Below, piece by piece: positions 1,340 to 55,858 of a stretch of 62,863 nucleotides of DNA. Numbering within the stretch: position 1 is the first letter of the stretch; each line of letters opens with the position of its first letter. The DNA is from Minisyncoccota bacterium (lineage in GTDB: Bacteria > Patescibacteriota > Minisyncoccia > Phycocordibacterales > UBA9973). Made by a program: the position numbers and the translations under genes. The stretch lies in the NCBI GenBank assembly GCA_942491275.1, contig CALNZI010000008.1, positions 1 through 62,863 on the forward strand, given 5' to 3'. The notes under the pieces were generated by a model. That model did not search any database and was not told the origin of the DNA. It saw only the letters and a list, made by a program, of their open reading frames with translations.

Positions 1340-2188
1340 ATGGCACATTTTGCAAAATTAGATAAGGATGGAAACGTGGTTAATGTTATAGTTGCTACGC
1401 AGGAAGTCATTGACGCGGGAAAGATGGGCCCCCAAGAACTTTTTATAAAGACTTCATACAATACATCTAAAGGGGAATACATACAAAACGGTGATCCAAA
1501 AAATATAGGCAAGAAACCACTCAGAAAAAATTATGCTGGTATAGGGATGAAGTATGATAAAGGACGAGATGCGTTTATTCCAAGAAAGCCCTTTGAGAGT
1601 TGGATATTAGATGAAGATACATGCATATGGGAAGCTCCAGTACCTATGCCTGATGATGGTAAATATGTTTGGGATGAAGATAGTTTAAGTTGGATTAAAA
1701 AAGAAAAGAAAGTTGAAATTAAAGAACCTCCAGCTGAAGAAATAACTCCAGAACCTCCAACTGAAGAACCAACTCCAGAACCTGAACCAGCACCAGAAAC
1801 TCCAGCAGAAGAGCCAGTTGTTGAACCAAATGAGACCGAAGAAACCCCATTAGAACCCACGGATCCACAAGTGGACCCTGCTTCTAACGGGGCAAGCACC
1901 ACAGAATTTCCTGTTGAAGGAGAACCAGCTGTTGAGCCAGTTGAACCAACTGAGCCTGAAGAAACAACCCCAGAACCTGAACCAACACCAGAACCTCCAA
2001 CTGAAGAACCAACACCAGAACCTGAACCAACACCAGAACCTCCAACTGAAGAACCAACTCCAGAACCTGAACCAGCACCAGAAACTCCAGCTGAAGAGCC
2101 AGTTGTTGAACCAACTGAGCCCGAGGAAATACCTCCGACTCCTGAAGAACCAACTCCAGAACCTCCAGTCGAGGAAACAACAGCCTAA
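1340..2188 (+). CDS. Phage fibre-associated small-domain protein (MAHFAKLD...LRKNYAGIG...WEAPVPMP) fused to a Pro/Glu/Thr-rich repeat tail
   Basis: The N-terminal ~120 aa resemble a family commonly encoded after Gly-rich fibre genes in uncultured tailed phages. The C-terminal ~160 aa are PEPTPEPPTEEPT repeats. Confidence 0.65.
   Translation: MAHFAKLDKDGNVVNVIVATQEVIDAGKMGPQELFIKTSYNTSKGEYIQNGDPKNIGKKPLRKNYAGIGMKYDKGRDAFIPRKPFESWILDEDTCIWEAPVPMPDDGKYVWDEDSLSWIKKEKKVEIKEPPAEEITPEPPTEEPTPEPEPAPETPAEEPVVEPNETEETPLEPTDPQVDPASNGASTTEFPVEGEPAVEPVEPTEPEETTPEPEPTPEPPTEEPTPEPEPTPEPPTEEPTPEPEPAPETPAEEPVVEPTEPEEIPPTPEEPTPEPPVEETTA
1748..2114 (+). repeat. Coding direct repeats (82-bp near-identical pair plus shorter units) encoding the PE/PT tract
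   Basis: 1748-1829 and 2033-2114 differ at one base; a shorter copy lies at ~1988-2032. Confidence 0.9.
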
Positions 2189-10981: not shown

Positions 10982-11779
10982 ATGGAAACATTAACAAAAA
11001 ATAAAAATAGTGCTCTAGGTGCAGTTTCTTTATTATTACTAATTTTATCAGTTTTTTTTGTAGTTAAAATTATCAATGAGATTAAAATGAGCAAACACGT
11101 TGGTGTAGGCTCTCAGTATTCAAATGTTATCTATGTCAGCGGACATGGAGAAGTTAATGCTGTTTCAGACATTGCTTCACTTAGTATGAATCTTTCTAAA
11201 GAAGGGCTAACAGCTAAAGAGGCTCAAGATCTTCTTAATGAATCAGTTACCAGTGTTTTGTCTTATTTAAAAGAACAAAATATAGAAGATAAAGATATTA
11301 AATCTCAATACGGTGGTTTAACTCCCAAGTATTCCTATGACCAGATTGCTTGTTTTACTTACCCTTGCCCACGAAAAGAACCTAAGATTGTTGGATATAC
11401 AGCTACTCAATCAATTGTTGTAAAGATTAGAGAAGTTGATAGTGCCAATGAAATTAGAACTGGTTTAGCGGAGATTGATGTTACAGATATTAATGGTCCA
11501 ACTTTCTCAATTGATGATGAAGACGTTTACAAAGAAGAAGCTCGAGCTTTAGCTATAGAAGAAGCTAAAATGAAAGCTAAAGTTTTAGCAAAGAATCTTG
11601 GAGTTAGATTAGGAAAAATTACAAATTTTTCAGAAAATAATGATAGTCCTTTCCCTATGATGTATGGAGCTGGTGTCATGATGGAGTCTTCTCGAATGAA
11701 GGCAGATCTTGCACCTGAACTACCAAAAGGAGAAAATACAATCACTTCAAACGTAACAATCACATACGAGATTCGGTAA
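10982..11779 (+). CDS. SIMPL (DUF541/YggE-like) domain protein
   Basis: N-terminal TM; VSGHGEV...DI, AREAIEEA-like REEARALAIEEAKMKAKVLA, LGVRLG; ends VTITYEIR. Confidence 0.88.
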   Translation: METLTKNKNSALGAVSLLLLILSVFFVVKIINEIKMSKHVGVGSQYSNVIYVSGHGEVNAVSDIASLSMNLSKEGLTAKEAQDLLNESVTSVLSYLKEQNIEDKDIKSQYGGLTPKYSYDQIACFTYPCPRKEPKIVGYTATQSIVVKIREVDSANEIRTGLAEIDVTDINGPTFSIDDEDVYKEEARALAIEEAKMKAKVLAKNLGVRLGKITNFSENNDSPFPMMYGAGVMMESSRMKADLAPELPKGENTITSNVTITYEIR

Positions 11780-11789
11780 ACAAAGTAAG

Positions 11790-11904
11790 ATTAAAACCCA
11801 AATAGCTCTTCTCTTCAGGCACGAAAATTTTCTGCTGAAAATTTTCTCAGTGTTCGCTCCGTCGAGCTCACAAGCCCTTCAGATAAGACTATTTGGGTTT
11901 TAAT
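11790..11904 (+). repeat. Dispersed structured repeat, copy A
   Basis: Core AATTTTC-TGCT-GAAAATT ... GCTC-CGTC-GAGC within a 16-bp IR (ATTAAAACCCAAATAG / CTATTTGGGTTTTAAT). Confidence 0.92.
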
Positions 11905-15708: not shown

Positions 15709-15723
15709 AATATAAAAATTATA

Positions 15724-15840
15724 AAAATAAATTAAAACAACTCTTCTCTTCGGGTATAAAAATTTTCTGCTGAAAATTTTCTCAGTATTCGCTCCGTCGA
15801 GCTCATAAGCCCCTCAGATAAGATTATTTTAATTTATTTT
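15724..15840 (+). repeat. Dispersed structured repeat, copy B
   Basis: Same core as copy A; flanking 17-bp IR AAAATAAATTAAAACAA / TTATTTTAATTTATTTT (one mismatch). Confidence 0.92.
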
Positions 15841-15860
15841 GAATATTTAATAAAAATAAG

Positions 15861-18671: not shown

Positions 18672-18789
18672 AAAAAAATAGACAAGACATACTCGGATTC
18701 ACCACGAATATTTTCCTGCTGGAAAATTTCTCTACTCGGCCCGTCGGCCTCCGTAAGGGTTCTCTCGAGCATATCTTGTCTATTTTTTT
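18672..18789 (+). repeat. Dispersed structured repeat, copy C (divergent)
   Basis: ATTTTCC-TGCT-GGAAAAT and GGCC-CGTC-GGCC; perfect 16-bp flanking IR AAAAAAATAGACAAGA / TCTTGTCTATTTTTTT. Confidence 0.85.
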
Positions 18790-18897: not shown

Positions 18898-19722
18898 ATG
18901 AATAACCAAAAAGACATACAAAAGACAGGGTTGAGTTCATACGGACAAAGTAATTTTGCGGGTACTAATGCATTGGTAAATAAACCTATTTACGAGTTTG
19001 CCAACAAAAAGACAGGGAAGCTAGTTACCGCCCTTTATATGGTCACAGATTGCATGGAAGTAAACGACGCTCTCCGTGAAAAACTACGTCTTTTAGGAGT
19101 TGAACTTTTGTCCGATATATACAAATTATCCACACTATTACCCATGGAAAATAGTACTCAAGTTGAGCTATCTCTAATTCGAATAAATGAGCTAATTTCC
19201 TTTATTGAAATTGCCGAGACTATAGGATATATATCTGAAATGAATACTAGTATTTTGAAGAGAGAATTTAATATATTGAGTGAAGAAATTAAAGCACATC
19301 AAACTAAGGATAATCATTTTCCATTTACACTGGATGATGAAATGTTCAAAACTCCAATAGAAAATAAAAGACAAGAAAATCTGTCTTTAAACAAGAACAA
19401 TAATAAAAGGACACCTTCTTTATTGTCTTTTACAAATAAAAGGACAGAAGGGAACAATGTCTCTAATAAAAAGGTTACTTCTATTGATTATAAAAAAATC
19501 AAATCTGACAGGGCAGAAAAGATTATTACTACTATAAAGGACAAACAAAAACTCCCAGGAGGGGAGAATGGAGCATCTATAAAAGACATTGCTTCTGTCG
19601 TTATTGATTGTTCAGAAAAGACCATTCAACGAGAACTAAACGATTTAATAGAAAAAGGCCAAGTTAAAAAAACAGGGGCAAAACGTTGGTCTAGATACCT
19701 ATTAATTGATACTAATATATAG
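18898..19722 (+). CDS. Hypothetical protein: N-terminal helical bundle, low-complexity linker, C-terminal winged HTH (DeoR-like)
   Basis: C-terminal SIKDIASVVIDCSEKTIQRELNDLIEKGQVKKTG..RWSRY is a wHTH pattern. Confidence 0.75.
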   Translation: MNNQKDIQKTGLSSYGQSNFAGTNALVNKPIYEFANKKTGKLVTALYMVTDCMEVNDALREKLRLLGVELLSDIYKLSTLLPMENSTQVELSLIRINELISFIEIAETIGYISEMNTSILKREFNILSEEIKAHQTKDNHFPFTLDDEMFKTPIENKRQENLSLNKNNNKRTPSLLSFTNKRTEGNNVSNKKVTSIDYKKIKSDRAEKIITTIKDKQKLPGGENGASIKDIASVVIDCSEKTIQRELNDLIEKGQVKKTGAKRWSRYLLIDTNI

Positions 19723-19727
19723 GGCAG

Positions 19728-19828
19728 AAAGAATAGCTCTCCTCTTCGGGCACGTAAATTTTCTGCTGAAAATTTTCTCAGTATTCGCTCCGTCGAGCTC
19801 ATAAGCCCCTCAGATGAGACTATTCTTT
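19728..19828 (+). repeat. Dispersed structured repeat, copy D
   Basis: Core nearly identical to copy B; 9-bp IR AAAGAATAG / CTATTCTTT. Confidence 0.92.
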
Positions 19829-20760
19829 TGACCTCTTTCATTTGTATTTTCCACCCCATTTTCTATCTATTTTTAGGGTTCAAAAATCACCATTTTTTGA
19901 CCCAAATTAAACCCTTAGTTATCCACACTTTTCTATATATCTATTGATTATTTATAGGCCACGGTATATAATACGTATACATATTATTATTGCTAGTGTA
20001 ATTGCACTAAATATGATAGTATATGTTGTCTGATATTATATTCATTTTTAATGGATATAAGTTGGATTGATCATTGAAAATTTAATAGCTAAAAATTATT
20101 AATACCAAATAATTTTTAGAAATATAATTTTAGTTCTTATTTTTTAAGAAGGTTTTATTTATAATTTTAACACCTTGTTTTAAAACTAGTTCTAAATTAT
20201 TTATTACTTTTCGATGGTTAGACACCGTAAAATTTTGAAGTAAAAATTTGAAATTATTTCTTCCGCTTAAAATTTTGTTTCCAATATTTGATACTCGTCC
20301 GTGATTTTTTTTGATAGAGAAAATTATTAGGAGAGAAAATATAAAAATAATTTTTTAAAAAGAAAAATAAAATTGAATTTATATTTTAATTTTTTATTTG
20401 GTATCGGCCCTGTCGACAAGGCAGATATGCTATTTGTTTTTCATTAAAATATTTTAATTTTTTTAGAAAATTTTAATGATTACATTTAGTAATGTTTATC
20501 AGTTTTTTTTCTAACTAATTTTTTCAGAATTTGGATTGTTGCTTGGCATATTTCTTTTGATAGAGAAGTAAGTAAGTCAGGAATAAAAAAAATAATGAAA
20601 TTATTATTTGGAATTTGTGTTCGTTCATATTAATCAATTAATTAATGTGAACAAAAATAATATACACACGCACATTAGTTTTTTTTGTGGATGCATCATT
20701 ATTAATAAGCATTCCATGAATTAGTCGAAATTAATTTAAAAGTGTATAGAATTATTAAAT

Positions 20761-22981: not shown

Positions 22982-23006
22982 TCTGCCAAGGACGGTCCTT
23001 GGCAGA
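22982..23006 (+). repeat. REP-like palindrome 1 (5' of RAYT)
   Basis: TCTGCCAAGGAC-G-GTCCTTGGCAGA. Confidence 0.9.
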
Positions 23007-23032: not shown

Positions 23033-23704
23033 ATGTTACGTAAAGACCCATTTATAACAGGTCAATATTACCATATTTACAATAGGGGAATAGATAAACG
23101 TCTGATATTTAACTCAAAAAGTGATTATAAAAGATTTATTATACTTTTATATTTAACTAATTCTACTGGACCAACCAATATTCGTTACATATTAAAAAGA
23201 GATCATAAAAAATTTAATGAAATATTTCAAATAAATAGAGGTGATATGGTTGTTTCTATTGGGGCTTGGTGTTTGATGCCAAATCATTTTCATATATTAG
23301 TAAGACAAGAGAGTGATGGCGGAATAACTAAATTTATGAAAAAGTTATCCACAGGGTACTCTATGTATTTCAATAAAAAATACGAACGACAAGGGTCATT
23401 ATTTGGAGGAGTATTTAAATCTAAGTTAATTGGTGAAGATGATAATTATATGAGACAACTTTTTGCTTATATTCATTTAAATCCATTAGAAACTAATTTT
23501 CCAGATTGGGAAAATAATAAAAAAGAATTAAATCAAGCTGAAGTTCAAAATTTTTTAAATTTGTATGAATATTCTAGTTATCACGATTATCTCGGGGAGG
23601 GGAGAGAACAGAAAAATATATTAAACAAAACTGCATTCCCTGATTATTTTAATAATGATTCAACATCTTTTGTCGATTTTGTAGAAAATTATTTTAAAAC
23701 ATAA
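23033..23704 (+). mobile_element. REP-associated tyrosine transposase (RAYT/TnpA-REP, HUH Y1 family)
   Basis: YYHIYNRG, WCLMPNHFHIL (HUH), AYIHLNP (catalytic Tyr) and YSSY; flanked by inverted palindromes; TGATATAAT 6 nt upstream. Confidence 0.9.
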
Positions 23705-23705
23705 T

Positions 23706-23736
23706 AAAGTTGCCAAGGACCGTCCTTGGCAACTTT
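23706..23736 (-). repeat. REP-like palindrome 2 (3' of RAYT, inverted relative to REP 1)
   Basis: AAAGTTGCCAAGGAC-C-GTCCTTGGCAACTTT. Confidence 0.9.
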
Positions 23737-23802
23737 AGGAGTTATCCACAGTTTGAGAGTATTTTTTATGGAAATAAAAAATACAGATTATATAATTGAG
23801 GA

Positions 23803-28173: not shown

Positions 28174-28198
28174 TCTGCCAAGGACCGTCCTTGGCAGA
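28174..28198. repeat. REP-like palindrome 3 (8 nt after the large surface gene)
   Basis: TCTGCCAAGGAC-C-GTCCTTGGCAGA followed by TTTGAG, as for REP 1. Confidence 0.9.
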
Positions 28199-31145: not shown

Positions 31146-31456
31146 ACTGCCTACGATGTTAATAAATAAAAACCAGTTGAAAATGCGGAAAAAGTAAAAC
31201 TTTCTTAGTTTTCCTTTGTCCGTCATTAAGACGGATTTTTTATTTGTTAGACAAGACATTGAAGATGATATTTGAAAACTGAATGCTGTTCCAACTCACT
31301 GTTATCCTTTAATTTTTTAAGGGTCTTTTGTATCGAGTTGGAAACAGAGTGTGATAATAAAAATTATTATTAGATCGGAAGCGGTTCTGAATGATAATAA
31401 TAAAGTCTGATTCTTTATCTGGAGAGAGAAAGATGATGATGGTTTTCAAATTTCCT

Positions 31457-34955
<3,499 letters not shown>

Positions 34956-35075
34956 AGGAAATATGAAAATCATCCCAGTAGTAGAGCATAGCTCACTACG
35001 GGATCAATTATTGTCACACTTTAGCATTCAGTTTTCAGATATTATCTATCTGAGTAGTGTTCATTGAATTTTTTG

Positions 35076-37236: not shown

Positions 37237-37241
37237 TTTAA

Positions 37242-37288
37242 AAGAATTAAGAATTAAGAATTAAGAATTAAGAATTAAGAATTAAGAA
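37242..37288 (+). repeat. Heptamer tandem repeat (AAGAATT)6 plus a partial unit, abutting the folD ATG
   Basis: Six perfect units plus AAGAA, then ATG at 37289. Confidence 0.97.
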
Positions 37289-38125
37289 ATGAAAACACAA
37301 ATTATTGACGGAAGAAAAATTAAAGAAGAGATCTTAAAGAAAGTAAAAGAAGAAGTTTTAACTTTACCTTTTTCTCCTGTTTTTTGTGATATTTTAGTAG
37401 GGGATGATAAGGTTTCTGCTTCCTATGTTCAAATTAAGGCAAAAAATGCTGATTCTGTAGGGATTAAATTCCGAACGGCAGAATTTCCAGAATCCATAAC
37501 TACGGAAGAACTAATTGAAGAAATAGAAAATTTAAATAGAGTCCCTCATATTTGTGGAGTAATTATTCAATTACCATTACCGGATCATATCGACAGAAAA
37601 AAAGTTTTAGATGCCATTGATCCACGGATTGACGTTGATTGTTTAGGGGCAGAAACAAATAAGGAATTTTATAATAATAAAGGAGAGCTTGGATATCCAA
37701 CAGCTTTAGCTTGTTTGAAAATTATTGATTCACTTAACTTAAATTTGTCTGATAAAAAAATTGTTGTTTTAGGGCAAGGATTTCTCGTTGGTCTTCCAGT
37801 GTCTCATTTGCTCCGTTCTCGAGGATTACAGATAGAAACTATTAGTAGCAATACAGAGGGAGCAAAAGATTTAATTAAAGAAGCAGATATTATAATCTCA
37901 GGAATAGGGAAAGGAAAATTTATTACTGGAGAAATGATTAAAAAAGATGTTATTATAATTGATGCGGGGACTTCTGAGGAGAATGGTTCTGTGATAGGGG
38001 ATGTGGATTTTGAATCAGTAAATGGAATTGCATCTCAGATAACACCATCACCGGGAGGAGTTGGGCCCGTTACTGTGGCAGTACTATTGGAGAATGTTTT
38101 AAAAGTAGCTAAAAATAAAAAATAA
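37289..38125 (+). CDS. folD: Methylenetetrahydrofolate dehydrogenase/cyclohydrolase
   Basis: GVIIQLPLP, DVDCL, IDAG, GDVDF and TPSPGGVGPVT. Confidence 0.95.
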   Translation: MKTQIIDGRKIKEEILKKVKEEVLTLPFSPVFCDILVGDDKVSASYVQIKAKNADSVGIKFRTAEFPESITTEELIEEIENLNRVPHICGVIIQLPLPDHIDRKKVLDAIDPRIDVDCLGAETNKEFYNNKGELGYPTALACLKIIDSLNLNLSDKKIVVLGQGFLVGLPVSHLLRSRGLQIETISSNTEGAKDLIKEADIIISGIGKGKFITGEMIKKDVIIIDAGTSEENGSVIGDVDFESVNGIASQITPSPGGVGPVTVAVLLENVLKVAKNKK

Positions 38126-44557: not shown

Positions 44558-44559
44558 AT

Positions 44560-44584
44560 TCTGCCAAGGACGGTCCTTGGTAAG
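44560..44584 (+). repeat. REP-like palindrome 4 (2 nt after the stop of the Cys-rich gene)
   Basis: TCTGCCAAGGAC-G-GTCCTTGGTAAG, then AAACGTCCGAA (44585-44595), also found at 22950-22960 near REP 1. Confidence 0.88.
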
Positions 44585-49845: not shown

Positions 49846-51672
49846 ATGTTAATTTCATACAATTGGCTAAAATCATATGTTCCCGAACTTCCAGAAAGTG
49901 AAAAAATTTCTGATATTATTAACAATCATCTTTGTGAGATTGAAGGTATTGAAAAAAAAGAAAATGATACAGTTTTTGATTTAAATATCTTGCCGGACAG
50001 AGCCCACGATTTACTTTCTCACCAAGGTGTTGCTCGAGAGTTAGCTTCTTTGCTGGAGTTAGATTTTAAACTTCCTGAATATAAAATTCCCACAGATAAT
50101 AAATCTAATTTCAAAATAGAAATAGAGACCGATAAATGTCGTCGATATATGGGTAGAATTGTTAGGAATGTAAAGATTGGACCATCTCCAAAATGGATGG
50201 CTGATTATCTAACTGCCATTGGGCAAAGAAGTATAAATAATATTGTTGATGCAACAAATATTGTGATGTTTGATTGTGGCCAACCAATTCATGCTTTTGA
50301 TTTAAAAGAACTTTCTTCGGAGAAAATAGTAGTTAAAAATGCTGTTATGGATGAAGAATTACAATTAGTTGGATCTGAAGAGGCAATCGTTAAATTAACC
50401 GATTCAAATATGATGATTACCGATGGAAAAAAGAACCTTGCAATAGCAGGAGTTAAAGGGGGAAAGAATTCTGGAGTCTCAGAAAATACAAAGGATCTTT
50501 TAATTGAAGTGGCGAACTTTGAACCAGTTTCTGTTCGTAGAACTTCAAGAGTTTTAGGAATACAAACAGACGCAACAAAGAGATATGAAAATGATTTATC
50601 TGCAAATTTATGTGATTTTGCAATGAAAGAAATTTCATCCTTATTTTTGGACATGTTTCCTGACGCAAAGTTTGAAGAAATTATTGATGAATATCCCATA
50701 AAGAAAGAAAAGAAAGTTATTTCTTTTAGTACAGAATATGTTTCAAAAATGTTGGGTGTTGAGATTTCAGATAAAGAGATAGAAAAAATCTTAAAAAATT
50801 ATAACTTTGATTATAGCGGAAATTGGAATGTGGAAGTTCCTGATATGAGAATCGATTTAAGTGGCCCGCAGGATATGGTTGAGGAAATAGGGAGAGTCTA
50901 TGGTTATGATAAAATTCCTTCAAGATTACCAGAGGTAGATTTTCCCGGAGAGAATAATCCTATTTGGGATAAAATACAAAAAGCGAAGGTCCAGCTTATT
51001 AATGATGGATATAAGGAGATAATGACCTACACTTTTACCAATAGGGGCAAAGTTGAAGTTTTAGCCAGCGCCAGTGATAAAAATTTTCTAAGAGACAATC
51101 TTTCTGACGGGCTTAGGGAGAGTTTAAGATTAAATAAAATAAATGCACCACTTCTTGATTTTGATGAAATTAAAATTTTTGAAATAGGGACAGTGTTTTT
51201 TGAGGATAGGGAGGAAATTCATGTTTGTTTTAATGAGAAGAAAAATATTATAGAAATGACGCTAAAAGAGTTTTCGGGAAAGAAGATTTCTTCTGAAGTC
51301 TACGGATATTTTTCTGCTGAAAAATTCCTCGTGCTCGGGCCGTCGCCCTCCCAAGGTACTTCAGATGAAACTTCTTTTCCTTCAACTTTTAAACCTTGGT
51401 CTTCCTATCCATTTATTTCTCGTGATATTTCTGTTTGGGTTCCAGAAAATACTAAGCCAGAAGAGTTGTCAAAAATTTATGAAGAACTTGGAACTGATCT
51501 TCTTATTAATAAACCAAAACTTTTCGATCAATTTACTAAGGATGGAAGGACTTCCTATGCATTTCGATTGGTTTTTCAATCTCAAGAGAGAACTCTGACG
51601 GACGAGGAAATAAATAAAGTAATGGTAAAAATTGAAGAGAAAATAGCTTCTTCTGGGTGGGAAGTAAGATAA
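49846..51672 (+). CDS. pheT: Phenylalanine-tRNA ligase beta subunit (short form) with a repeat-derived in-frame insert
   Basis: MLISYNWL, PDRAHDLLSHQG.ARE, INNIVDATN, B5 RIDL...EEIGR.YGYD, B8 YPFISRDIS...SYAFRL.FQ...RTL. Confidence 0.95.
   Translation: MLISYNWLKSYVPELPESEKISDIINNHLCEIEGIEKKENDTVFDLNILPDRAHDLLSHQGVARELASLLELDFKLPEYKIPTDNKSNFKIEIETDKCRRYMGRIVRNVKIGPSPKWMADYLTAIGQRSINNIVDATNIVMFDCGQPIHAFDLKELSSEKIVVKNAVMDEELQLVGSEEAIVKLTDSNMMITDGKKNLAIAGVKGGKNSGVSENTKDLLIEVANFEPVSVRRTSRVLGIQTDATKRYENDLSANLCDFAMKEISSLFLDMFPDAKFEEIIDEYPIKKEKKVISFSTEYVSKMLGVEISDKEIEKILKNYNFDYSGNWNVEVPDMRIDLSGPQDMVEEIGRVYGYDKIPSRLPEVDFPGENNPIWDKIQKAKVQLINDGYKEIMTYTFTNRGKVEVLASASDKNFLRDNLSDGLRESLRLNKINAPLLDFDEIKIFEIGTVFFEDREEIHVCFNEKKNIIEMTLKEFSGKKISSEVYGYFSAEKFLVLGPSPSQGTSDETSFPSTFKPWSSYPFISRDISVWVPENTKPEELSKIYEELGTDLLINKPKLFDQFTKDGRTSYAFRLVFQSQERTLTDEEINKVMVKIEEKIASSGWEVR
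51279..51378 (+). repeat. Dispersed structured repeat, copy E, inside the pheT coding sequence
   Basis: ATTTTTC-TGCT-GAAAAAT and GGGC-CGTC-GCCC; IR AAAGAAGATTTCTTCTGAAGT / ACTTCAGATGAAACTTCTTT. Confidence 0.85.
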
Positions 51673-53969: not shown

Positions 53970-53974
53970 TTTAT

Positions 53975-54093
53975 AAAAAATATTAAAAATAGCTCTTCTC
54001 TAAATGCACACATAATTTTCTGCTGAAAATTTGATCTGCTCGGGCCGTCGCCCTGCGCAAGGCATCTCTTGAAGACTATTTTTAATATTTTTT
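53975..54093 (+). repeat. Dispersed structured repeat, copy F (between convergent gyrB and thrS)
   Basis: AATTTTC-TGCT-GAAAATT and GGGC-CGTC-GCCC; perfect 18-bp IR AAAAAATATTAAAAATAG / CTATTTTTAATATTTTTT. Confidence 0.92.
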
Positions 54094-55858
54094 AATTTAG
54101 AGTTTTTTCTGAAATTTCTTTTTGTAATTTTTCGAGAAGTTGCTCCGAAGTAATTCCTTCTAACTTTTCATCTCGTCCTTCGAGAGTTACTGTTCTAGAT
54201 TCTTTTTCTTTATCTCCAATAACTATCACGTATGGAGTTTTTTGTAATTTAGCATTACGGATACGTTTTCCAAGAGATTCATTTGAATCATCCAACTCAA
54301 CTCGGATATTTTTTTCTTTTAGTTTATTATAGATTTCATCCGCGTATCCTTTTTGTTTTTCACTAATTGGAGTAATGATTACTTGAACAGGAGAAAGCCA
54401 AAGGGGGAATGCTCCAGCATATTTTTCAATAAGGAAAGCCATTATTCTTTCGATTGCTCCAATAGAAGATCGATGAACCACAAAGGCTCTATGTGATTTT
54501 CCATCTTCTCCTATATAGGAAAGATCAAATCTTTCTGGCATGCAGAAATCATATTGGACCGTGAAGGCCGTATCTTCTTTACCATTTACATTTTTCATTT
54601 GGATATCTATTTTGGGACCATAAAAGGCAGCCTCATCTTTGGCTTCTTCGAATGCAGATTTTCTACTTATCATTAATTCTCGTAGAAGGTCTTCTCCTTT
54701 TTCCCAGGCAGAATCATCGTTATAATATTTTTCAGTATTATTTCTGTCTCCCAGAGAAAGTCGGTATCTATAATCCACATCAAGTTTTAGTCCAAAAACA
54801 GAGGTAATGTACTCAATCAAATCTAGAGCTTTACCAATTTCTTCTACAGCTTGTTTATCTGAAGCACATATTATATGGGCATCGGCTAGACAGAAACTTC
54901 TAACTCTAACAAGACCCATAAGTTCTCCCGACTGTTCATATCGATATAATTTAGCTAATTCAGCAATTTTCAGAGGTAGCTCTTTATAACTATGTGGTTT
55001 ATTTAAATATAATTCAAAGTGATGAGGACAGGTCATTGGTCTAAGCATATATTCTGATTCATCAATTTTTATTGGAGCATACATGGAATCCTTGTAATGG
55101 GGATAATGTCCAGATTTTTTATATAATTCTAAGTTAGCAATGTCTGGAGTTACAACATGTTGATATCCACGTCTAATTTCTTCATCAACAATAAATCTTT
55201 CTAGTTCACGTCTAATTGTTGCTCCCTTAACTGTAAAGAGAGGAAGACCCTTACCAACTGTTTCAGAAAAGACAAAAAGGTCTAATTCTTTCCCTAATTT
55301 TTTATGATCTCTTTTTTCGGCTTCAATTCTCATTTCCTCATATTCTTTTAAAGCCTCTTTGCTTTCAAAAGCCAATCCGTAAATACGAGTAAGCATTTTA
55401 TTTTTTTCATCTCCTCTCCAGTAGGCTCCAGCAACACGGTCCAAATTAAAAGAATCACTTTTAATTTCTTTAGAAGGATTTTCTACATGTCCTCCTCCAC
55501 AAAGATCAGTAAAATCACCACAACTATAAAGGGTTATTTCTTCTCCTCTTTCTACTATTCCGTCTATTAATTCTAATTTGTATACATTATCTTTGTAATA
55601 TTCTCGGGCTTCTTCGGGGGAAACTTTTTTATGACTGAATTCTTTCCAAGAAGAAAGATTTTTTTTCATTATTTTCTCTAATTTTTTTAAATCGTCATCA
55701 TTAACTTTCTTGTCCCCGAAATCAATATCATAATAGAACCCATTATCAACAGCCGGACCCAGTGTTAAGAGCGACCCCGGATGTATTTCTTTGGCAGCCT
55801 GGGCCAATAGATGAGAAAGTGTATGTCTAATATTTTTAATTTTTTCGTTATTTTCCAT
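54092..55858 (-). CDS. thrS: Threonine-tRNA ligase (lacks the N1/TGS domain)
   Basis: RHTLSHLL, DLCGGGHV, AYWRG, DHKKLG, RPMTCPHH, AFYGPKID and VHRSSIGAIER. Confidence 0.98.
   Translation of the reverse strand: MENNEKIKNIRHTLSHLLAQAAKEIHPGSLLTLGPAVDNGFYYDIDFGDKKVNDDDLKKLEKIMKKNLSSWKEFSHKKVSPEEAREYYKDNVYKLELIDGIVERGEEITLYSCGDFTDLCGGGHVENPSKEIKSDSFNLDRVAGAYWRGDEKNKMLTRIYGLAFESKEALKEYEEMRIEAEKRDHKKLGKELDLFVFSETVGKGLPLFTVKGATIRRELERFIVDEEIRRGYQHVVTPDIANLELYKKSGHYPHYKDSMYAPIKIDESEYMLRPMTCPHHFELYLNKPHSYKELPLKIAELAKLYRYEQSGELMGLVRVRSFCLADAHIICASDKQAVEEIGKALDLIEYITSVFGLKLDVDYRYRLSLGDRNNTEKYYNDDSAWEKGEDLLRELMISRKSAFEEAKDEAAFYGPKIDIQMKNVNGKEDTAFTVQYDFCMPERFDLSYIGEDGKSHRAFVVHRSSIGAIERIMAFLIEKYAGAFPLWLSPVQVIITPISEKQKGYADEIYNKLKEKNIRVELDDSNESLGKRIRNAKLQKTPYVIVIGDKEKESRTVTLEGRDEKLEGITSEQLLEKLQKEISEKTLN

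Follow-up and report, generated by a model that had tools for sequence, protein, structure and literature searches.

The pheT gene in the 62,863-nt stretch of a Minisyncoccota bacterium genome analysed here (assembly GCA_942491275.1, contig CALNZI010000008.1, positions 1 to 62,863; hereafter the window) contains a palindromic hairpin element in frame, which belongs to a family found in many genomes of the candidate phyla radiation (CPR). This copy, designated E, quite probably represents a complete member of a CPR-wide element that was anciently acquired in a linker of the phenylalanyl-tRNA synthetase beta chain (PheT), has been inherited since then and is read through as a passenger peptide, with the structure of the nucleic acid being kept. 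A sequence-only reading of the window had described E as a repeat lying in the pheT frame without a stop, just before the B8 domain, and the translation of the open reading frame (ORF) agrees exactly with this description. It includes ...GKKISSEVYGYFSAEKFLVLGPSPSQGTSDETSFPSTFKPWSSYPFISRDIS..., is free of stops, and copy E codes for residues 477-512 (GKKISSEVYGYFSAEKFLVLGPSPSQGTSDETSF), which lie after the B7 module and before the B8 (FDX-ACB) domain. The element noticed at that time is real, its true extent is slightly wider than the bounds 51279-51378 given initially (Table 1). Intact reading frames suggest that the insert is translated, and peptides such as ISSEVYGYFSAEK or FLVLGPSPSQGTSDETSFPSTFK would be expected in this case.

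The position of the insert inside the protein was evaluated using domain annotation and a structural model. PheT, for which more than 6000 homologues were found, has the Pfam domains B3_4 at residues 97-270, B5 at 292-354 and FDX-ACB at 519-602, residues 357-457 correspond to the first half of the catalytic-like module, and in this Pfam scan residues 458-518 are covered by no domain. In the AlphaFold2 model, residues 480-520 appear as coil with predicted local distance difference test (pLDDT) values below 50, about 30, and are flanked by the confident strands of B7 and the confident B8 domain. Because of this low-confidence coil and because the stretch varies in length among orthologues, the insert is placed by the model in an interdomain linker, as had been supposed before.

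The family membership of E can be directly followed in the window. The signature TCG[SN]CCGTCG[NS]CT occurs six times (positions 11854, 15789, 18736, 19785, 51335 and 54040), always on the plus strand, compared to 0.00 occurrences expected from shuffles, and the hairpin-1 motif TTTTCTGCTGAAAATTT, situated upstream of the signature, has 14 window matches compared to 1.87 expected. A covariance-model scan of the window at full sensitivity, with every position being scored, found just these six copies and no seventh one. With a second, independent covariance model, built from copies in other genomes only with the window copies and the identified in-gene copies left out, E (51299-51357) obtained the highest score of the six with 72.0 bits (E-value about 2e-14), and its core is 67-81% identical to the other window copies, F and C being the nearest ones. 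The six copies are 105-139 nt long and fold with -21 to -42 kcal/mol (z -2.4 to -5.7). Each of them forms one long hairpin, the apex of which is a conserved core of about 59 nt with two small hairpins joined at a junction, the first one with a TGCT loop (hairpin 1), the second one with a 4-bp stem and the loop CGTC (hairpin 2). In the basal stem of E, 21 of the 23 aligned positions are Watson-Crick pairs, accompanied by one G.U pair, one T.T mismatch and additionally one bulged base.

This architecture is supported by covariation. Over 75 copies from many genomes, 97% of the cells are paired in comparison to 79% after shuffling and at most 57% when the partners were slid, and changes on both sides were found in 169 cells versus 51 expected, a number reached in none of 500 shuffles. 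The loops as well as the first and last pair of hairpin 2 had been fixed by the search pattern, therefore only the other positions count as evidence for covariation. Among these, six of the ten pairs of hairpin 1 changed on both sides (96% of its cells being paired), and the two middle pairs of hairpin 2 covary in 34 and 26 of the 75 copies. The stem under the core has a median length of 25 bp and reaches up to about 40 bp of perfect pairing. As read from the sequences, its inner part is common within subfamilies; for example, ATAGCTCTTCTC... occurs in the window copies A, B, D and F as well as at the loci L040 and L071 of other genomes, the arms of E resemble this subfamily, and its right arm is like those of A and D (CTTCAGATAAGACT, CTCAGATGAGACT). 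The outermost 5-20 bp of the stem are locus-specific yet complementary.

The comparison of PheT proteins indicates what has been conserved at this site. In the 120 orthologues compared (53-67% identical), the part of PheT bounded by ...LDEF and FKPWS... is 34 to 64 residues long, and in many proteins without the core its length is 34-44 residues. An alignment of close orthologues had been proposed as a test of the insertion, and indeed repeat-free orthologues are without the same linker: the closest one, P0002 (67% identical, 591 aa), has no insert and a 37-residue linker of unrelated sequence, and the shortest linkers have 34 residues versus 54 in carriers. The core is present at this site in at least 28 of the 120 orthologues and appears in four peptide classes. 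Seventeen proteins belong to the main class A with the window peptide GYFSAEKFLVLAPSRSQ, nearly always in a 54-residue stretch, four show a shifted form B, four a third form C (ISLLGNFSAR), and in three the core is inverted. In the DNA of carriers, the same element was found at the same site in L001, L002, L004 and L114, with homologous arms also in L125. The stem of hairpin 2 is GGGC/GCCC in the window, GCTC/GAGC in L001, GCGC/GCGC in L002 and L004, and GAGC/GCTC in L114; together with the pheT versions GTCGC/GCGAC and GCTT/AAGC this makes six compensatory versions, and such changes turn the encoded LGPSPS into LAPSSS, LAPSRS or LEPSLS. In L125, the arms are in the same frame and the core is frame-shifted, reading KNFLLEISSVRRRR; in L126, the core is inverted (69.9 bits on the minus strand) and reads ARLRNFSAEKY; and in L127, hairpin 1 is kept and hairpin 2 has decayed. 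Moreover, third-position identity among five species amounts to 0.87 in the core versus 0.44 in B8 and residues 211-470, the arms being intermediate. Because of the compensatory hairpin changes, the shifted and inverted readings and the frozen synonymous sites, the peptide appears to be a by-product, and as far as sequence comparison can tell, the conserved entity at the PheT site is the nucleic acid, i.e. a DNA or RNA structure, and not the encoded peptide. Either selection acting on the nucleic acid, gene conversion with other copies as donors, or repeated re-insertion may maintain the core. Regarding its history, an old insertion followed by decay, deletion, inversion and replacement is favoured over recurrent insertion, because the arms seem to be homologous across the carriers, including the frame-shifted and inverted ones. 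Hence, the earlier interpretation is supported in its main part, with the two corrections that the insertion appears old and shared and not recent in this genome, and that the peptide is not the conserved part.

PheT is not the only protein concerned. Other host genes were identified from DNA matches, open frames, Pfam scans and the independent covariance model; RecG, TsaD (twice), PrmC-like methyltransferases (twice) and phosphoglucomutase contain the core in frame, in line with the former suggestion that the family makes new segments in essential CPR proteins. These copies lie between Pfam domains in RecG, phosphoglucomutase and the methyltransferases and inside the domain in TsaD, and the orientation of the core is in all of them opposite to that of most PheT copies. 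Empty sites were also found: at precisely these positions, related genes for TsaD and RecG have 27-31 residues fewer. The idea that one arm represents the original host sequence and the other its inverted copy was dropped, because the arms of E seem similar to those of A, D, L040 and L071, and because in RecG and TsaD the filled sites comprise the two arms as additional sequence; only the few outermost base pairs are locus-specific. Searches at the peptide level were less productive: a concatenated 53-residue query for other hosts returned only two short unannotated proteins, and a 34-residue query gave no hit among 1.8 billion representatives at E-values up to 0.001. In intergenic hairpins, 2.5 of the six frames are open on average compared to 1.17 in composition-matched shuffles, therefore the family seems to be unusually compatible with coding.

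Table 1. Location of copy E, the remaining window copies, further host genes and other palindromic sequences. Numbers without locus label are window positions; L numbers denote loci of other genomes.
Feature	Location	Strand	Remarks
pheT (phenylalanyl-tRNA synthetase beta chain), host gene	49846..51672	+	ORF, 608 aa; Pfam B3_4, B5, tRNA_synthFbeta, FDX-ACB
Copy E, whole hairpin element, in frame	51276..51380	+	arm-to-arm alignment; fold -42.3 kcal/mol, z = -4.9 versus shuffles
Copy E, left arm of basal stem	51276..51299	+	codes GKKISSEV; pairs with 51358-51380
Copy E, hairpin 1, GGATATTTTTC-TGCT-GAAAAATTCC	51304..51328	+	covariation in 75 copies
Copy E, hairpin 2, GGGC-CGTC-GCCC	51337..51348	+	codes part of LGPSPS; middle pairs covary
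Copy E, right arm of basal stem	51358..51380	+	codes TSDETSF; pairing with left arm
Copy A	11790..11904	+	intergenic, past stop of SIMPL/DUF541 gene (10982..11779)
Copy B	15716..15848	+	intergenic, between recA (-) and small gene (-)
Copy C	18672..18789	+	intergenic, between ftsK (-) and ORF 18898 (+)
Copy D	19709..19847	+	intergenic, at stop of ORF 18898..19722
Copy F	53974..54094	+	between convergent gyrB (stop 53969) and thrS (end 54092); hairpin-2 stem as in E
RecG	L046		core between two helicase lobes
Phosphoglucomutase (PGM/PMM)	L092		core between domains I and II
TsaD	L095, L123		core at same site in both genomes, before LPRPM; inside TsaD domain
PrmC-like methyltransferase	L061, L072		core before methyltransferase domain
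RAYT-flanking palindrome	22982-23006, 23705-23737, 28174-28198, about 44559-44580
Second palindromic family	L129 4464-4478; L130 3671-3685, 4571-4585; L002 10258-10272; L132 (pheT linker)

A pattern scan using one genome per species revealed at least 119 matching stretches, of which about 10 are chance matches in non-CPR genomes and the rest belong nearly all to Patescibacteria. The carriers comprise Paceibacterota, Nomura-, Kaiser-, Yonath-, Niyogi- and Moranbacteria as well as Saccharibacteria, with 1 to 4 copies per locus. Just one match was obtained among 2.9 million viral contigs, which leaves a phage origin unsupported. Intergenic copies carry no flanking pheT sequence; in loci with a G+C content below 45%, they are often flush with stop codons, and in 17 of these loci the CTGCTG motif is situated about 37-65 nt past the stop of the co-oriented gene. 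In 60 of 77 loci, G exceeds C on the pattern strand, the one that corresponds to the sense strand of pheT in copy E. A literature search found no description of such an element in CPR bacteria; the family, with its wide distribution and good structural support, thus appears undescribed.

A longer variant of the element, which has a 16-nt spacer and a GGTCAC...GCGACC extension of hairpin 1, adjoins tRNA genes (L102 5086-5178; L050 about 240-345; L111 about 1925-2060); its reverse-complement strand is co-oriented with the tRNA, the 3' end of which recurs as a 19-20 nt duplicate directly behind the element. Furthermore, copies of different genomes (L006, L008, L011, L026, L046, L099) have (T)CGCTC at their left and TC(G/T)CT(C/G) at their right boundary, which may represent a target that is preferred and duplicated, or else an outer portion conserved within one subfamily. 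None of the window copies matches an Rfam 15 family at the gathering score, and none was found at E-values up to 1 in five loci holding both variants. Readings of the core as hammerhead, signal recognition particle (SRP) RNA or tRNA-like structure were rejected, since they disagree with the invariant motifs and Rfam yields no match.

The linker of PheT also harbours other palindromic sequences. A second family (GGTCCTCGGATCTCC...GGCCAGACC), which does not occur in the window, is found in frame at the same B7-B8 linker in other CPR lineages, where its two reading frames give QVLGSP or RSSDLL, and at two other positions of PheT. The pheT linker of L131 (within 1177-2976) contains a perfect 13-bp palindrome, AAGGTCTTGCCTT...AAGGCAAGACCTT, coding for GKVLPLEIPRQDLEEQK, and similar peptides exist in six other orthologues. 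With at least three kinds of palindromic core across lineages, the PheT linker is a hot spot or a long-lived nest of such sequences. In the window, pheT is preceded by pheS at a distance of 3 nt and followed by gyrB. A small 23S_rRNA_IVP gene (PF05635), not present in the window, is inserted between pheS and pheT of some relatives (L002 9569-9913; L003 2373-2717; L132 1119-1463).

Taken together, the following scenario appears the best explanation. In the linker that joins the B7 module to B8, an ancestor of this PheT clade would have gained one copy, which has presumably been inherited since. Inside genes, a copy would survive only in states with an open reading frame; the ribosome would read through it and thereby add about 20-35 residues of probably disordered linker, the peptide being a neutral passenger. 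The structure would be kept either as a requirement for the persistence or spread of the element or through gene conversion, in which copies elsewhere in the genome overwrite it. The element might hence be regarded as a non-autonomous, self-maintaining palindromic repeat, which is accepted in genes only in frame and in tolerant segments, as has been proposed for the Rickettsia elements. The locus-specific outer pairs could, as a speculation, result from an outward extension of the palindrome by template switching. For PheT, a single ancient insertion thus appears likely, and the element would probably be selfish rather than host-serving.

Several observations weigh against this scenario. The carriers are scattered on a neighbour-joining tree, which is too rough to decide between one and many insertions, and repeated insertion into a hot spot would explain their distribution as good as one insertion with many losses. 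A direct target-site duplication is not seen in general, and no partner enzyme was found. For a repeat that is purely selfish, the orientation bias and a core conserved all the way from Saccharibacteria to Paceibacterota are unusual, and the strong hairpin together with the nucleotide-level conservation would also fit a removal at the RNA level. It should be considered, too, that the in-gene copies were found via open frames and full-length homologues, so that broken genes would escape. Finally, a RAYT was considered as the mobilising enzyme. The window contains a RAYT-like gene for a Y1 (IS200-type) transposase at 23033-23704 (+), which matches Pfam PF01797 with 3e-10 and, below the cut-off, NCBIfam REP_Tyr_transpos with 8e-10. 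It is flanked on both sides by a palindrome of 25-33 nt, TCTGCCAAGGAC[C/G]GTCCTTGGCAGA, that recurs in the window (Table 1). RAYT homologues occur near the element in 4 of about 124 loci in addition to the window; those of L001, L007 and L061 have each their own palindrome, and that of L083 lies at the end of the locus. Because each RAYT-like gene is flanked by a different palindrome, no link between RAYT and the element emerges.

Alternatively, the core could serve the host as a structured nucleic acid, i.e. an RNA or single-stranded DNA three-way junction bound by a conserved CPR protein, which we consider rather unlikely. It might play a role in 3'-end formation, RNA stability or a replication-oriented function of the chromosome; the in-gene copies would be kept for this role and the coding sequence would accommodate them. 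The conservation of the core with covariation across very distant CPR lineages, the frozen synonymous sites within pheT, the position of intergenic copies directly behind stop codons and the strand bias are all in favour of such a function. Moreover, a 2x2 loop (5'-TC/3'-CT), which corresponds to tandem G.A on the opposite strand, is conserved in non-coding copies a few pairs beneath the junction, A.C mismatches prevail over G.U by 59 to 17, and for five of the six pheT genes with a sense-strand core the better fold is that of the reverse-complement strand. However, the copies in pheT are without the 2x2 loop, the element is found in both orientations relative to transcription, in genes as well as between them, and the core has decayed or been deleted in some PheT lineages without visible consequence (L127; 34-residue linkers). 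The variable number of copies per locus and the lack of an Rfam family and of a linked gene point in the same direction. It is likewise rather unlikely that the two-hairpin core acts as a functional single-stranded RNA or DNA module that folds best opposite most genes, displays the tandem G.A, is recognised by conserved CPR machinery and has working copies in pheT, tsaD, recG and prmC. If this were true, selection on the nucleic acid would override selection on the peptide, and the site would be read in whichever frame stays open.

It also seems very improbable that the element escapes translation, being either skipped or cut out of the pheT transcript (for instance when the long stem is cleaved and the ends are rejoined), which would leave the mature PheT with a short linker. 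The strong hairpin (-42 kcal/mol), the frame-independent conservation at the nucleotide level and the presence of RNase III genes in related loci would be compatible with such a process. The rRNA genes of CPR bacteria are known to carry intervening sequences, and the 23S rRNA gene of the window (31456-34958, +) spans 3503 nt compared to 2925 positions of the model, therefore it contains about 580 nt of extra sequence; no ORF of at least 90 aa was found inside this gene. Against removal, every in-gene copy keeps the frame open and the downstream domain in phase, with three peptides on one strand and in both orientations, although the ascertainment favours open frames; among intergenic copies, any given frame is open in only about half of the cases. 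In addition, the carriers of the main peptide have nearly all a 54-residue linker, and to our knowledge no bacterial pathway has been established that rejoins mRNA exons of this kind. The reverse direction, in which the segment would be a native PheT linker and the intergenic copies dispersed pheT fragments, has a negligible probability and is already contradicted: the pheT copy tops the window copies against the family model and its site is common to many orthologues, but the core is absent from the closest orthologue and many others, is read in PheT as three peptides on one strand and also inverted, and recurs without flanking pheT sequence at more than 100 intergenic sites as well as in four unrelated protein families, other CPR phyla included.

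Two other repeats were noticed in the window. An imperfect tandem repeat (GAACCAACWCCAGAACCT...) with copies 12-18 nt apart extends over 1712-2195 inside the ORF 1340..2188 and codes for a low-complexity tract rich in Pro, Glu and Thr. Runs of the heptamer AAGAATT and its complement at 34490-34535 and 37240-37295 form a 46-nt inverted pair about 2.7 kb apart, which stands on either side of the 5S rRNA gene and the next two ORFs.

The acquisition of the element by PheT and its persistence as a passenger, as favoured here, would have some wider implications. It offers a measurable signal that the repeat and not the peptide has been kept by evolution, and it might explain odd low-complexity inserts in CPR housekeeping proteins, which calls for caution among annotators and users of structure prediction. 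Furthermore, the element could provide a marker for the history of CPR lineages and a handle on the mechanism of its mobility or maintenance.

The comparison with known systems sets the element apart from most of them. Introns and inteins do not match, because no group I or II intron model fits in the window or in the five loci with both variants and no splicing domain covers residues 458-518; an insert of 105 nt is also too small for either of them. Bacterial MITEs (miniature inverted-repeat transposable elements) such as Correia, ERIC/IRU, RUP, Nezha and others (reviewed in PMC10969869) are likewise small, non-coding, multi-copy sequences with inverted-repeat ends, which form a long hairpin when transcribed and often reside at gene ends. 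Unlike MITEs, the element has no terminal inverted repeats common to all copies: its arms are inverted repeats but differ by subfamily, and conservation peaks in the middle and not at the ends. A direct duplication is not general, a subset being flanked on both sides by TCGCTC. The window and about 130 loci yielded no parent insertion sequence sharing the ends of the element, just the unrelated RAYT-like genes. With REPIN/RAYT systems the element shares the long hairpins and genomes encoding a Y1 (HUH) RAYT-like transposase; in contrast to them, the RAYT genes are flanked by other, species-specific palindromes and not by the repeat they would mobilise, and the element is not a doublet of one repetitive extragenic palindrome (REP).

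The CGTC-tagged REPs are 20-40 bp long and have an unpaired terminal CGTC, a stem of 8-9 bp, a loop of 4-5 nt and a CCA tail (Di Nocera et al. 2013, PMC3733652). According to the same study, GTAG- and CGTC-tagged REPs are mostly situated downstream of genes, between co-directional and convergent ORFs, some REPs are intragenic, often in genes for DNA replication and repair, their dimers code for 20-30 residues, and the CGTC REPs are without a dedicated transposase (PMC3733652). The element resembles these intragenic REPs as a palindromic repeat at gene ends and in frame that has no dedicated transposase. However, it is not a CGTC-REP, because here CGTC is the loop of a 4-bp hairpin within a two-hairpin composite of about 105 nt and not a terminal tag.

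The closest likeness is to the Rickettsia palindromic elements (RPE-1 to RPE-8; Ogata et al. 2000, 2002; Claverie and Ogata 2003, as cited in PMC3733652). As far as they are portrayed in that account, both are hairpin repeats of about 100 nt dispersed in small genomes, both occur between genes and in frame within housekeeping genes at sites that are orthologous in related species, both add 20-35 residues at tolerant places, and neither is described with a known transposase. The analogy drawn in the sequence-only reading thus applies to the behaviour, namely hairpin size, in-frame copies and linker placement; this likeness is by description, and membership in the RPE families is not claimed. 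Unlike the RPEs, the element resides in CPR bacteria, its apical two-hairpin core is conserved with covariation while the stem varies by subfamily and locus, and a single site yields several peptides and is read in both orientations, with the synonymous sites of the core being frozen. Hence, palindromic repeats that become parts of proteins, known from Rickettsia and few other bacteria, would also exist in the CPR, a very large but little-studied group with tiny genomes.

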